Shown: in pieces, positions 9,426 to 15,252 of the stretch
Numbering within the stretch: the stretch's first letter is position 1
How the letters are laid out: each line of letters opens with the position of its first letter
Assembly: GCF_054482525.1 (NCBI RefSeq)
Contig: NZ_CM137006.1
Length of the DNA stretch: 64,000 nucleotides
Strand: one strand, 5' to 3'
The notes under the pieces: generated by a model
Told to the model about the DNA's origin: nothing
What the model saw: only the letters and a program-made list of their open reading frames with translations
The model's database searches: none
Program-made: the position numbers and the translations under genes

Positions 9426-9506
9426 ATGAAAATTGCTGATCAATTTCATGATGAGTTATGTAGACTGGCCGCCATTAATTTTGAGGCACACGTACTACAT
9501 GGCTGA
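9426..9506 (+). CDS. yrbN: Small protein YrbN (26 aa)
   Basis: atg aaa att gct gat caa ttt... translates [26 protein letters not shown]; stop overlaps deaD start. Confidence 0.5.
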
Positions 9507-11400
9507 ATTCGAAACCACTTTTGCAGATCTGGGCCTGAAGGCTCCTATCCTTGAAGCCCTTAACGATCTGGGTTACGAAAAACCATCTCCAATTCAGGCA
9601 GAGTGTATTCCACATCTGCTGAATGGCCGCGACGTTCTGGGTATGGCCCAGACGGGGAGCGGAAAAACTGCAGCATTCTCTTTACCTCTGCTGCAGAATC
9701 TTGATCCTGAGCTGAAAGCACCACAGATTCTGGTGTTGGCACCGACCCGCGAACTGGCGGTACAGGTTGCTGAGGCAATGACGGATTTCTCTAAACACAT
9801 GCGCGGCGTAAACGTGGTTGCCCTGTACGGCGGCCAGCGTTATGACGTGCAATTACGCGCCCTGCGTCAGGGGCCGCAGATCGTTGTCGGTACTCCGGGC
9901 CGTCTGCTGGATCACCTGAAACGTGGCACTCTGGACCTTTCTAAACTGAGCGGTCTGGTTCTGGATGAAGCTGACGAAATGCTGCGCATGGGCTTCATCG
10001 AAGACGTTGAAACCATTATGGCGCAGATCCCGGAAGGTCATCAGACCGCTCTGTTCTCTGCAACCATGCCGGAAGCGATTCGTCGCATTACCCGCCGCTT
10101 TATGAAAGAGCCGCAGGAAGTGCGCATTCAGTCCAGCGTGACTACCCGTCCTGACATCAGCCAGAGCTACTGGACCGTCTGGGGTATGCGTAAAAACGAA
10201 GCACTGGTACGTTTCCTGGAAGCGGAAGATTTTGATGCGGCGATTATCTTCGTTCGTACCAAAAACGCGACTCTGGAAGTGGCAGAAGCTCTTGAGCGTA
10301 ACGGCTACAATAGCGCCGCGCTGAACGGTGACATGAACCAGGCGCTGCGTGAGCAGACACTGGAACGACTGAAAGATGGTCGTCTGGACATCCTGATTGC
10401 GACCGACGTTGCGGCCCGTGGCCTGGACGTTGAGCGTATCAGCCTGGTAGTTAACTACGATATCCCGATGGATTCTGAGTCTTACGTTCACCGTATCGGT
10501 CGTACCGGTCGTGCGGGCCGTGCTGGCCGTGCGCTGCTGTTCGTTGAGAACCGTGAGCGTCGTCTGCTGCGTAACATTGAACGCACCATGAAGCTGACCA
10601 TTCCGGAAGTTGAACTGCCGAACGCAGAACTGCTGGGCAAACGTCGTCTGGAAAAATTCGCCGCTAAAGTACAGCAGCAGCTGGAAAGCAGCGATCTGGA
10701 TCAATACCGTGCACTGCTGAGCAAAATTCAGCCGACTGCCGAAGGCGAAGAGCTGGATCTCGAAACTCTGGCCGCCGCACTGCTGAAAATGGCACAGGGT
10801 GAACGTACTCTGATTGTTCCGCCAGATGCGCCGATGCGTCCGAAACGTGAATTCCGTGACCGTGATGACCGTGGTCCGCGCGATCGTAACGACCGTGGCC
10901 CGCGTGGTGACCGTGAAGATCGTCCGCGTCGTGAACGTCGTGATGTTGGCGATATGCAGCTGTACCGCATTGAAGTGGGCCGCGATGATGGTGTTGAAGT
11001 TCGTCATATCGTTGGCGCGATTGCTAACGAAGGCGACATCAGCAGCCGTTACATCGGTAACATCAAGCTGTTTGCTTCTCACTCCACCATCGAACTGCCG
11101 AAAGGTATGCCGGGTGAAGTGCTGCAACACTTTACGCGTACTCGCATTCTCAACAAGCCGATGAACATGCAGTTACTGGGCGATGCACAGCCGCATACTG
11201 GCGGTGAGCGTCGTGGCGGTGGTCGTGGTTTCGGTGGCGAACGTCGTGAAGGTGGTCGTGAAGGCGGTCGTAACTTCAGCGGTGAACGCCGTGAAGGTGG
11301 TCGTGGTGATGGTCGTCGTTTTAGCGGCGAACGTCGTGAAGGCCGCGCTCCGCGTCGTGATGACTCTACCGGTCGTCGTCGTTTCGGTGGTGATGCGTAA
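9499..11400 (+). CDS. deaD: ATP-dependent DEAD-box RNA helicase DeaD/CsdA
   Basis: [13 protein letters not shown]...; motifs [25 protein letters not shown]; Arg/Gly-rich repetitive C-terminus; start at ATG 9499. Confidence 0.95.
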
Positions 11401-11425
11401 TCATCGCTGAACAGCGAACACAATC

Positions 11426-11502
11426 TGTAAAATAATATATACAGCCCCGATTTGTACCATCGGGGCTTTTTTTCTGTCTTTTGTACTCGTGTACTGGTAC
11501 AG
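11426..11502 (+). promoter_or_regulatory. mtr promoter region with TyrR-box-like and TrpR-operator-like palindromes
   Basis: tgtaaaataatatataca (TGTAAA-N6-TATACA) and tgtactcgtgtactggtacag upstream of mtr. Confidence 0.55.
11444..11473 (+). terminator. Rho-independent terminator after deaD
   Basis: gccccgatttgtaccatcggggc followed by tttttttc. Confidence 0.75.
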
Positions 11503-11553
11503 TGCAATGCATAACAACGCAGTCGCACTATTTTTCACTGGAGAGAAGCCCTC

Positions 11554-12798: not shown

Positions 12799-12858
12799 TT
12801 GAACGAGCCGGATGAGCAGTTTTCATCCGGCAATAATTCACAAGTACACGAGATGGTA

Positions 12859-13389
12859 TCAAATAAACCCCTGTTTATTATAAAGTTCTTCAGCGAGAGT
12901 TTCCCCGTGCTCATCGAAAAAAGCATCGGCGATAGTTAAATTTTCTGCCTTAGGATTTGCCGTTATTTTGCTACCATTGGCATCAAATTCGAGCGCGATA
13001 GCGGTCTCCGAACCCCACCAGTAATAATAAATTAGCGCAAAATTATTTTCCCCTGGCGTAATAAACTTCTCGATTCTCCGCACACAGGCCATGAGTGGCA
13101 TGAAGATTTCATAGCTCTCTGAGAGAAATATGTGATCCATCGTGACTATCTGTGTTTCTTTATTAAAGTTGATATGTTCGGCATAAATATTCTTTTCACT
13201 TTCACCAGAATTACAAGCTGCAAGATTGTTAAGCATTTTTGCAGGATCGCCGTACAACCGCTGCTTCTCGATAAACCATGGTAACCAGTCGTCATAGTCT
13301 TTGATATTTGTTGCTGGTGAATGGAAAAACTTCTCGAGGTTACTCTCGGTAATATGTGCATGAAGAAAAAAGGAAGCCGGTTCACTCAT
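12859..13389 (-). CDS. Hypothetical protein, 176 aa, no recognisable motif (orphan ORF in AT-rich islet)
   Basis: Clean ATG-start ORF with plausible RBS; AT-rich codon usage unlike flanking genes; no signal peptide; not part of the K-12 gene order as I know it. Confidence 0.6.
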   Translation of the reverse strand: MSEPASFFLHAHITESNLEKFFHSPATNIKDYDDWLPWFIEKQRLYGDPAKMLNNLAACNSGESEKNIYAEHINFNKETQIVTMDHIFLSESYEIFMPLMACVRRIEKFITPGENNFALIYYYWWGSETAIALEFDANGSKITANPKAENLTIADAFFDEHGETLAEELYNKQGFI

Positions 13390-13547
13390 GATGATTTTCT
13401 CTGGTAATAAGTCGATTTGTTCATTTCTCTGTTTGGTGATGATAAAACGATGACTATTTTATAAAAGTACAGAACTGGACCTTTCATCTATTTCATATCA
13501 TAAGAAAATATATACAAGAACTGGCTCAGAATAAGCGGAATACGAAA

Positions 13548-14267
13548 ATGGGGCGTAAAGGACTACTTGCTATTGTATTGTTGAGCCTGTTTATCGCCAT
13601 GATTTTTCAATTTTTCTGGCCTGCCCCACACGATGAGCACGTTTTCCTGCTGGTTGAAAAACCTGTCGTACCGTCTTTAAAAATCATTCACGCCGGCGAC
13701 CAGTTATTTATCCGCATTCTGAAAGCGGAAGATAAGCTGGAACTGTGGGCAAGCACCAACAACAAGCCTTACGAACTCTATAAAACCTGGACTATATGCG
13801 CGTGGTCTGGTGGCTTAGGGCCAAAGCACAAACAGGGGGATGGTAAAAGCCCGGAAGGTTTTTATGCCACCAACAAAGGGTTACTTAACCCAAACAGTCG
13901 CTATCATCTGGCATTTAATATTGGTTACCCGAATGCTTACGATCGGGCAAACGGCTACACCGGTGATTTCATTATGGTTCACGGAAACTGCCTTTCGGCG
14001 GGCTGCTATGCCATGACCGATGCTGGTATTGAAGAGATTTATCAACTGGTGGCGCAGGCGCTGAATAGCGGGCAGAAGAGCGTGCCGGTGCATATCTTCC
14101 CGTTTGCGATGAACGAAGAAAATATGCGCCAGGCGCAGGTATGGCCGGAATATAATTTCTGGCGTATGTTGAAGCCCGGCTATGATTACTTTGAAAAAAA
14201 TCGCCGATTGCCAACCATCACCATTGAAAACCGGCGTTATAAAATCAGCCCAACAACTCATCCTTAG
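13548..14267 (+). CDS. YafK/DpaA-like L,D-transpeptidase-fold protein (YkuD domain) with N-terminal signal/anchor
   Basis: 239 aa; hydrophobic N-terminus; YkuD catalytic motif HGNCLSAGC; long-range similarity to E. coli YafK (…SGGLGPK…[10 protein letters not shown]…[11 protein letters not shown]…GCYAM…PGYDYFE…). Confidence 0.75.
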
Positions 14268-15252
14268 CATCCATCGCCAGTTCAAACGAATGCAGGCGCG
14301 CCTGGTGATCGAAAATCTGCCCGTTAACCATAATCTCATCGGCGTCGGTTTCGCGCAGGATCGACTGCAAGCCGTGACGCACTTTCGCTTTATCGCCCAC
14401 CAGCGACATACTCAGCGCCTGCTGCACGCCATACTGCTCGGACGGTGACCAGAACTGATCCATATTTTGAATCGGCGGCGGTAGTTGCCCGGTTTCGCCA
14501 CGGCGTAGTTTCACAAAGGCTTGCTGCATTGAGGTAAAGAGAAATTCAGCGTCGCGGTTGCTGTCGGCGGCGATAATATTGATGCACACCATCGCATACG
14601 GTTTTTCCAGCCGAGCCGACGGTTTGAAGTTACTGCGATAAAGATGCAGCGCCTGGAACAACATATCCGGCGCGAAGTGTGAGGCAAACGCAAACGGCAG
14701 ACCAAGCTGCGCCGCCAGTTGCGCACTGTAAAGGCTGGAGCCTAACAACCATACGGGGATTTTTTCGCCATAGCCTGGTACCGGGCGCACATGTGGATTG
14801 GGATCGCGGGCGTCAAACCAGTCCACCAGCTCCGCGACATCGCGGGGGAAATTATCAATATCGCCGCTCATATGACGACGTAGAGCCATCATGGTTCGCT
14901 GGTCACTACCCGGAGCACGACCCAGCCCCAAATCGATTCGCCCCGGATAGAGCGTATTAAGCGTGCCGAACTGTTCGGCGATCACCAATGGTGAGTGATT
15001 AGGCAACATCACGCCGCCAGACCCCAGATGCAGCGTAGTGGTATTCGCCGCCAGATAGCCAATCAAAACTGATGTTGCAGCACTGGCAATGCCAGTCATA
15101 TTGTGGTGTTCTGCCAGCCAGTAGCGATGATAGCCGCGCTTTTCAGCCAGACGGGCGAGATCGAGAGAGTGGGAGAATGCTTCTCGCGCTGAAGAACCTT
15201 CGGGAATGGGGGCCAGATCGAGTAGCGAAAACGGAATGGTTTTATCAGTCAT
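14245..15252 (-). CDS. yhbW: Luciferase-like monooxygenase YhbW
   Basis: 335-aa [22 protein letters not shown]...; bacterial luciferase-like family. Confidence 0.93.

Follow-up and report, generated by a model that had tools for sequence, protein, structure and literature searches.

In Escherichia coli K-12, the cold-shock DEAD-box RNA helicase DeaD (CsdA) has helicase activity, and its loss produces a cold-sensitive phenotype (PMC1616957). According to a summary of Xu et al. 2017, CsdA lacking its C-terminal tail keeps its ATPase and unwinding activities, which are even raised (PMC11850223). Hera of Thermus thermophilus and CshA of Geobacillus and Staphylococcus likewise combine a helicase core, a dimerization domain and a C-terminal RNA-binding domain (PMC11850223). 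The DeaD protein described here is encoded in a stretch of 64,000 nucleotides, referred to below as the window, and CshA (5ivl) aligns to its residues 6-433. It shares with K-12 DeaD the gene, the locus, the domain architecture and every aligned residue, and differs from it by four additional residues, REGG, and by 36 synonymous SNPs.

Two further systems offer a comparison for the tail of this protein. The RGG/RG tails of eukaryotic proteins are Arg/Gly-rich and disordered, lie beside an RNA-binding or helicase module, and evolve by the gain and loss of repeat units. The DeaD tail differs from them in its abundance of Glu and Asp (GERREGGR) and its small number of canonical RGG triplets, and it is not known to be methylated on arginine; homology is not implied by the likeness. 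The other system is that of the bacterial contingency loci, phase-variable simple sequence repeats that share with the DeaD tail the occurrence of repeat-mediated indels within a coding region. Unlike these loci, the DeaD tail has units that are multiples of three, one to three copies rather than long arrays, and alleles that are stable within clones.

The coding sequence of deaD (csdA) occupies positions 9499..11400 on the plus strand and specifies 633 residues plus a stop, as supported by the ORF list, the RefSeq annotation and Pfam. We follow RefSeq in placing the start at the ATG at 9499; the 655-aa ORF in the mechanical ORF list, which begins at a TTG at 9433, is an upstream extension of the same gene and was set aside in favour of that ATG. 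All five domains of the family are found by Pfam (DEAD, Helicase_C, DeaD_dimer, DbpA and DeaD_C). The helicase core is represented by DEAD (177 bits, residues 30-196) and Helicase_C (111.8 bits, residues 232-340), the dimerization domain by PF25399 DeaD_dimer (64.7 bits, residues 374-443), and the RNA-binding domain by PF03880 DbpA (73.6 bits, residues 489-558). The tail matches PF12343 DeaD_C, a family curated as “DeaD_C disordered region”, over the full profile (1-62 of 62) at residues 568-633, with 51.9 bits against a cutoff of 23.3. The E. coli DeaD fragments in PDB entries 5gju and 5gi4 match the window protein with E values of 3e-130 and 2.7e-142, and 5b88 is essentially identical to residues 481-564 (E 1.6e-50), which form the folded, non-repetitive RNA-binding domain of the DbpA/RRM type (10939..11190, plus strand). 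Since 5gi4 stops at residue 445 and 5b88 spans 481-564, the linker between these two structures and the tail are the only DeaD segments without a solved structure. K-12, 118UI and FXCREC035 share the gene order nlpI-yrbN-deaD-mtr in their annotated regions, RefSeq labels identical or near-identical loci deaD, and over 4.4 kb the window matches PCN033 at 100% identity. Downstream of the stop codon, a terminator scan picks up an intrinsic-terminator-like hairpin and T-run at 11443..11474 (plus strand), with a 9-bp stem holding six G-C pairs followed by TTTTTTCTGT. The gene is unambiguously the E. coli cold-shock helicase gene deaD/csdA, and from the identity of every aligned residue we infer that its product would have the same helicase activity and cold phenotype as K-12 CsdA.

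The initial annotation described the 3' end of this gene as a run of near-identical short units encoding two Arg/Gly-rich peptides of 20 and 36 residues. Both peptides do lie in the deaD frame, at residues 455-474 and 582-617. The repetitive character holds for the second of them, in the tail, but not for the first, in the linker, and what separates these two low-complexity segments in the 3' third of the gene is the folded, non-repetitive domain at 10939-11190. The linker itself (10834..10938, plus strand; residues 446-480) is an Arg/Asp/Pro-rich segment that leads from the dimerization domain to the RNA-binding domain and carries the motifs DDRGPR and NDRGPR; among Enterobacterales its length ranges from 38 to 68 aa. 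Its proposed unit, cgt gat gac cgt ggY ccg cgY, is present at about 10858-10905 in two copies only, which by manual count are about 79% alike, and Tandem Repeats Finder (TRF) did not detect it there. In a codon-shuffle test of 10858-10929, 467 of 1000 shuffles reached the observed score. We therefore rejected the linker as a significant DNA repeat, its score being within what codon composition leads one to expect.

The in-frame repeats of the tail are real. This Arg/Gly/Glu-rich, disordered segment (11200..11397, plus strand; residues 568-633), supported by PF12343, composition and codon shuffles, is built from four degenerate GERR(E/G)GGR..F(S/G) units, and Arg accounts for 20 and Gly for 22 of 67 codons. 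Over 11197-11397, its best self-match, with a score of 28, was reached by none of 1000 codon shuffles, which averaged 13.4 and peaked at 26. Over the GERREGGR units, TRF reports a repeat with a 45-nt period at 11236..11342 on the plus strand (2.4 copies, 80% matches) and, within it, a 12-nt period at 11243-11271 (2.4 copies, 94% matches). The DNA of the tail contains numerous short direct repeats, 5 to 18 nt in length. Repeat enumeration places GGCGAACGTCGTGAAGG at 11236 and again at 11326, and the counterpart of this pair in K-12 is a perfect direct repeat of 18 nt, 78 bp apart. A 15-bp unit, GGTGAGCGTCGTGGC, which encodes GERRG, is present in one copy in the window, at 11203..11217 on the plus strand.

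It is in this tail that the window departs from K-12. The initial annotation proposed that K-12 DeaD lacks a few of the residues around GERREGG, and alignment put the difference at exactly four residues, or 12 bp: the window protein has 633 aa, as does the RefSeq record WP_001306022.1, against 629 aa in K-12 (WP_001295553.1), so that the two genes differ in both length and sequence. In both DNA and protein alignments, the insertion of REGG within GERREGG(REGG)RNFSG is the sole protein difference, with all 36 SNPs between the two genes being synonymous. At the DNA level it is a 12-bp tandem duplication at 11243..11266 on the plus strand, GTCGTGAAGGTG followed by GTCGTGAAGGCG, seen in the K-12 alignments and by TRF; the two copies differ by one base, T or C, giving GGT in one and GGC in the other. 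REGG occurs only once in E. albertii, E. whittamii, Escherichia sp. E1V33 and Salmonella diarizonae, as well as in E. coli E69, so that the 633-aa long form is the derived state. GGT and GGC both occur as SNP alleles of the single-copy form, and probes for independent perfect duplications (GGC-GGC and GGT-GGT) found none among the matches listed.

Variation in repeat number across strains, which had been raised as a possibility, was borne out by a survey of 5,426 complete E. coli genomes with junction probes. The survey detects predicted junctions only, at in-frame repeats of at least 8 nt, and the probes were screened by a 28-mer check against megablast seeding on shared stretches; two records at 80-90% identity and a further two at 99% or more stand outside the allele assignments. 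Seven in-frame length alleles were found besides that of K-12. The +12 bp allele of the window is the most frequent, being recognized by exact 36-nt and 56-nt junctions in 157 of the genomes, in every case on the chromosome and in one copy. The +15 bp allele has 49 carriers, among which several are labelled ST361, and the +30 bp allele has one. Shortened tails are represented by -15 bp (two genomes), -66 bp (three genomes, with the junction at GGTGGTCGTGGT), -78 bp (21 genomes) and -132 bp (two genomes, with the junction at GCGTCGTG). The -78 bp allele was predicted from the perfect 18-nt repeat before it was found, and its junction falls exactly at that repeat, the GGCGAACGTCGTGAAGG sites; since two or more SNP backgrounds are represented among its carriers, a repeated origin of the deletion is probable. 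All seven alleles are multiples of three, each sits at a short direct repeat, and all retain the C-terminal 15 residues of DeaD. The copy number of GGTGAGCGTCGTGGC is zero in ET776, one in K-12 and the window, two in EC5 and three in CFIAFB20180511, and that of the 12-bp unit is one or two across E. coli. Head-to-tail units of polymorphic copy number give the tail a VNTR-like character, with a low variability: the seven alleles together account for 235 genomes (4.3%), and about 95.7% are of K-12 length.

Several partial matches were considered and set aside. About 730 records match 29 nt of one probe, which was put down to a common SNP that turns GGT into GGC in the terminal FGGDA codons, and EC529, GmM077 and 357900 are SNP variants at K-12 length rather than indel alleles. 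Another 26 genomes match only 34 nt of the 56-nt +12 junction probe; SW4848 and one other were examined, and both have the K-12 length, carry GGT at the variable codon and lack the duplication.

The carriers of the +12 allele include PCN033, which belongs to phylogroup D (PMC4578781), and strains labelled ‘O15:H18 ST69’ and ‘O7:H15 ST70’. The PCN033-like and 118UI-like sub-haplotypes are set apart by eight SNPs within deaD and have the duplication in common. An identity of 99% or more to the window over 4.4 kb is shared by 180 genomes, a number that is only loosely informative, as a genome without the 12 bp would also pass this threshold. Both the +12 and the +15 allele belong to clinically sampled clones, a pattern that hitch-hiking or selection could explain.

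Length variation of the tail also extends to other species. In a survey of PF12343 tails across Enterobacterales, the tail measures 45-89 aa and has zero to six ERR motifs, and in 41 of 117 species it contains exact in-frame repeats longer than those in any of 30 codon shuffles. Independent duplications are seen as well: S. arizonae has two copies of FSGERR, and Yokenella has REGGREGG.

Taken as a whole, the window very probably shows a clonal REGG duplication within a length-tolerant, repeat-coded DeaD tail that evolves by slow in-frame indels. Slippage in replication, or unequal recombination between tail repeats, is the likely cause and would occasionally add or remove whole units; the disorder of the tail would allow a change in length to be tolerated, while strong purifying selection would keep the remaining residues. 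We infer that such length changes are nearly neutral. Going by the anatomy of the junctions alone, slippage is a plausible mechanism, and the REGG event in the window could stem from two GTCGT copies flanking GAAGGYG in the ancestral sequence. For the 12-bp duplication, slippage with a later point mutation and unequal recombination involving two alleles are equally possible, since its copies differ as GGT and GGC and both are known as SNP alleles of the single-copy form. The duplication is fairly old, given this one-base difference and the two sub-haplotypes that carry it.

One could ask whether the extra 12 bp are an artefact of sequencing or assembly in a gene that is truly of K-12 length, as assembly and polishing are well known to go wrong in short tandem repeats and the difference amounts to exactly one repeat unit. 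We regard this as so improbable as to be negligible: 157 complete genomes that were assembled independently carry the exact junctions, none of the listed close matches over 4.4 kb stops short of either end of the query, the 633-aa protein has its own RefSeq record (WP_001306022.1), and a one-base difference between the copies is not what an error of collapse or expansion would be expected to leave. A genuine length difference could still belong to a hypermutable locus of the contingency type, in which rapid and reversible switching of repeats tunes or switches DeaD function. The several length alleles, including the series of zero to three copies of the 15-bp unit, and the probably recurrent -78 bp deletion on at least two SNP backgrounds do lend themselves to this reading. 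It is nonetheless very improbable, because copy numbers go from one to three in units of 12-78 bp whose copies are imperfect, every allele stays in frame and so allows no on/off switching by frame-shift, and variability within lineages is low, with about 95.7% of genomes at K-12 length. Each common variant, moreover, recurs within one clone label or haplotype and has thus been stable through clonal expansions, and the ‘capsule spontaneous mutant’ strains, apparently one laboratory series, all retain the +12 allele. The alleles are clonally stable, and what they record is slow indel evolution rather than rapid instability of the phase-variation kind.

Slow evolution of the tail could also be adaptive, with lineage-specific tails that tune RNA binding or annealing, condensates, or fitness under cold and stress, and that were selected in clones. 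Basic C-terminal extensions of DEAD-box proteins have been tied to RNA annealing and tethering in the literature (PMC3590231), deletion of the tail is summarised as altering ATPase and unwinding in vitro (PMC11850223, on Xu et al. 2017), and DeaD foci in E. coli are mentioned with reference to Hondele et al. 2019 (PMC7414142). The +12 (ST69/ST70) and +15 (ST361) alleles are found throughout clinically sampled sets of strains with the same label; a clone-wide marker is, however, also what hitch-hiking alone would produce, and the changes are small, four or five of about 65 residues, next to the 45-89 aa seen in related species. We consider selection of such tails unlikely. The proposal that tail length is a selectable tuning knob, with the clone-wide (+12, +15) or recurrent (-78) alleles favoured by selection, is in our estimate quite doubtful; if true, changes of +4, +5 and +10 or of -5, -22, -26 and -44 aa would alter RNA tethering or annealing, or the formation of foci. 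The reading we prefer remains that of slow, nearly neutral indel evolution.

The repeats had also been held responsible for the long antisense ORFs in this area. This is partly right. Two of them on the minus strand, an ORF of 149 aa over the tail (11079..11528) and one of 80 aa over the linker (10728-10970), share one antisense frame, and the stop-free stretches of that frame coincide with both Arg/Gly-rich segments. The statement fails for the longest, the 425-aa ORF at 9853..11130 on the minus strand in the codon-aligned frame, which reflects codon bias: it stays open not because of repeats but because deaD is nearly devoid of TTA, CTA and TCA codons (three, none and none among 633 sense codons). 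A Pfam search of the 149-, 80- and 425-aa ORFs gave no match, and since frame analysis accounts for them they were rejected as genes.

It is worth pointing out that deaD, its tail family in Pfam and the 633-aa allele in RefSeq had all been annotated before, and that the extra REGG is an ordinary inherited lineage marker, not a new feature. Its biological significance at large is little. For annotation, there is a note of caution in that long antisense ORFs over deaD reflect codon bias and amino-acid composition, not genes. The alleles provide simple markers, +12 for a set of genomes that takes in PCN033 (phylogroup D) and strains labelled ST69 and ST70, and +15 for strains labelled ST361. Beyond this, the natural series of proteins with 585, 603, 607, 624, 629, 633, 634 and 639 aa would lend itself to probing the function of the DeaD tail in cold adaptation, 50S assembly or the formation of foci.

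The helicase gene deaD (also named csdA) occupies 9499-11400 on the plus strand and encodes a 633-residue protein in which the Pfam architecture of the DeaD family is complete: DEAD (residues 30-196), Helicase_C (232-340), DeaD_dimer (374-443), the DbpA RNA-binding domain (489-558), and PF12343, the "DeaD helicase C-terminal disordered region" (568-633; 51.9 bits against a cutoff of 23.3). The gene is flanked by nlpI, yrbN (26 aa) and mtr, an arrangement like that of K-12. Over a stretch of 4.4 kb the window matches E. coli PCN033, SCU-102 and 19KM1776 at 100% identity and a large set of genomes, a strain labelled 'O15:H18 ST69' among them, at 99.4%; PCN033 is a porcine ExPEC of phylogroup D (PMC4578781). 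RefSeq starts deaD at the ATG at 9499, which gives 633 aa in the window and 629 aa in K-12. A mechanical ORF list starts at a TTG at 9433 instead, for 655 aa; the extension at 9433-9498 shares sequence with yrbN and probably forms no part of the translated DeaD. The small yrbN ORF (9426-9506), which RefSeq annotates here in K-12 as well as in other strains, overlaps the start codon of deaD by 8 nt. A strong hairpin at 11443-11474 (9-bp stem, 6 G-C pairs, then a T-run) lies 43 nt past the deaD stop; the minus-strand call of this hairpin lacks a good T-run.

The initial annotation described the 3' end of deaD as consisting of two kinds of short, slip-prone repeat. Both of the peptides it quoted occur, in the deaD frame, and one of the two repeat units, that of the Arg/Gly/Glu-rich C-terminal tail, withstood analysis. 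TRF detects two periods in it, one of 45 nt at 11236-11342 (2.4 copies, 80% matches) and one of 12 nt at 11243-11271 (2.4 copies, 94% matches). When the tail codons were permuted 1000 times, preserving composition and codon usage, the observed self-match score of 28 was reached by none of the shuffles (mean 13.4, maximum 26). The C-terminal tail is truly repetitive. The other unit, at about 10858-10929 in the linker between the dimerization and RNA-binding domains, is present in two copies only (DDRGPR and NDRGPR, about 79% alike by our own count), goes unreported by TRF, and has a score equalled in 467 of the 1000 codon shuffles; we rejected it as a significant DNA repeat and regard it as low-complexity sequence. 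The wording that the 3' end "consists of" repeats likewise goes too far, since bases 10939-11190 code for a folded RNA-binding domain whose structure is PDB 5b88. The earlier observation was largely right, with the linker repeat and this wording overstated. Solved DeaD structures exist for residues 6-210 (5gju), 218-445 (5gi4) and 481-564 (5b88), and the segments thereby left without one are exactly the linker (446-480) and the tail (565-633), which fits with their being disordered.

The same annotation had put the K-12 protein at a few residues shorter, and alignment bears this out. The K-12 gene (strain HMS174) has 1890 nt and 629 codons, compared with 1902 nt and 633 in the window, so the two are identical neither in length nor in sequence. 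Four inserted residues, which add a REGG, are the sole protein difference; at the DNA level they correspond to a 12-bp tandem duplication at 11243-11266, GTCGTGAAGGTG then GTCGTGAAGGCG. Another 36 SNPs separate the two genes, all of them synonymous since every aligned residue is identical; the tail sequence is therefore under purifying selection, though its length can change. As to which form came first, one genome per species was scanned for a conserved 12-residue peptide, recovering 120 Enterobacterales deaD loci. A single REGG is found in E. albertii, E. whittamii, Escherichia sp. E1V33, E. coli E69 and Salmonella enterica subsp. diarizonae, and the duplication is therefore derived. It also predates the split between the PCN033-like and 118UI-like sub-haplotypes carrying it, since these differ by 8 SNPs within deaD but have its configuration in common. 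The two copies of the 12-bp unit differ at one base (T/C). This difference may have arisen later than the duplication or by unequal exchange between two alleles; the variable codon is GGT in some single-copy alleles and GGC in others.

Repeat number had been suggested as possibly varying across strains, and it does vary: seven non-K-12 length alleles occur in 235 of 5,426 complete E. coli genomes (4.3%). In 5,425 of them the tail region occurs as one copy per genome; for one genome the deaD 3' end matched nothing, and a plasmid carries one additional copy of the region. One representative sequence per allele was read out, and genomes were counted with junction probes that have fewer than 28 nt in common with the frequent alleles; as Megablast requires a 28-nt exact word, they were designed to match junction carriers only. 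The window's +12 bp allele (633 aa; GTCGT flanking GAAGGYG) is carried by 157 genomes, among them PCN033, 118UI and strains labelled ST69 and ST70. Three alleles differ in the copies of GGTGAGCGTCGTGGC: a second copy gives +15 bp (634 aa; 49 genomes, including EC5 and strains labelled ST361), three copies give +30 bp (639 aa; CFIAFB20180511 only), and no copy gives -15 bp (624 aa; the two frog isolates ET776 and ES9). The larger deletions are -78 bp at an 18-nt perfect repeat, GGCGAACGTCGTGAAGGC (603 aa; 21 genomes, including SCEC020001 and EC0026B derivatives), -66 bp at GGTGGTCGTGGT (607 aa; 14EC047 and two O145:H28 strains), and -132 bp at an 8-nt repeat, GCGTCGTG (585 aa; FXCREC035 and FXCREC004). 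These three classes add up to 26, exactly the number of records below 80% coverage in the tail-region survey, and such deletions also explain the 24 records at 95-99% identity (21 + 3). Four records, two at 80-90% identity and two at 99% or above, were assigned to no allele, so the catalogue may miss a few rare ones. The -78 bp allele was predicted from its 18-nt repeat before it was searched for and found. It lies on at least two SNP backgrounds, which favours recurrence; four of the 21 genomes with it were derived in the laboratory from a single parent isolate, which puts the number of independent isolates below 21. The 603-aa protein has one RefSeq accession, WP_005001325.1, over the differing synonymous backgrounds of EC0026B_C and SCEC020001. 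All non-K-12 alleles are in frame and retain the terminal 15 residues. The indels end at short direct repeats, and the common variants each recur among strains sharing a clone label or haplotype.

Among Enterobacterales, tail and linker both normally evolve by gaining and losing units. In 117 species the tail after LLGDA(Q) has 45-89 residues, a median of 55% of them Arg or Gly, with 0 to 6 ERR motifs, and in 41 of the 117 the longest exact in-frame repeat exceeds that of all 30 codon shuffles; the linker ranges from 38 to 68 aa. Duplications have arisen independently: Yokenella and Pluralibacter have REGGREGG, Serratia oryzae has doubled a 42-nt unit, and the six residues FSGERR stand twice in tandem in S. 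enterica subsp. arizonae. One genome of the latter also has a linker three residues shorter, where E. coli has DRNDRGPR; both low-complexity segments have thus changed in one lineage.

The long antisense ORFs were likewise put down to the repeats. This holds for the minus-strand ORFs of 149 aa (11079-11528) and 80 aa (10728-10970), which lie in one common frame and whose stop-free stretches coincide with tail and linker respectively. It does not hold for the 425-aa ORF (9853-11130, minus), in the codon-aligned antisense frame, which reflects codon bias because TTA, CTA and TCA are nearly absent from deaD (3, 0 and 0 of 633 sense codons). None of the three has a Pfam match. Farther downstream, about 1.45 kb at 12799-14244, between mtr (end 12798) and yhbW (14245-15252, minus), is absent from K-12, where the gap is about 117 bp. 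A 176-aa ORF here (12859-13389, minus) has no Pfam match and equals in position a 176-aa hypothetical protein annotated in 118UI; a 239-aa ORF (13548-14267, plus) has a weak YkuD L,D-transpeptidase domain (27 bits).

The DeaD tail is a disordered, repeat-built Arg/Gly/Glu-rich appendage, and its length is polymorphic. The indels would arise by replication slippage or unequal recombination, and the reading of the region as a slip-prone array that is shorter in K-12 is supported. C-terminally truncated CsdA reportedly keeps partial function in vivo (work of Turner et al. in 2007). Changes in tail length would be nearly neutral because the tail would be dispensable for the catalytic cycle. A construct without it is described as unwinding RNA and hydrolysing ATP more actively (PMC11850223, summarising Xu et al. 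2017). For basic C-terminal extensions, a role in secondary RNA binding and annealing has been proposed (PMC1616957, PMC3590231). DeaD is also described as forming foci in E. coli (PMC7414142, citing Hondele et al. 2019), to which the tail may contribute. deaD itself, the family to which its tail belongs and the 633-aa allele were all on record before, and a low-complexity tail polymorphic for coding indels is an ordinary case; the analysis adds the polarity of the indel, how frequent it is and in which strains it occurs, as well as a small series of natural alleles.
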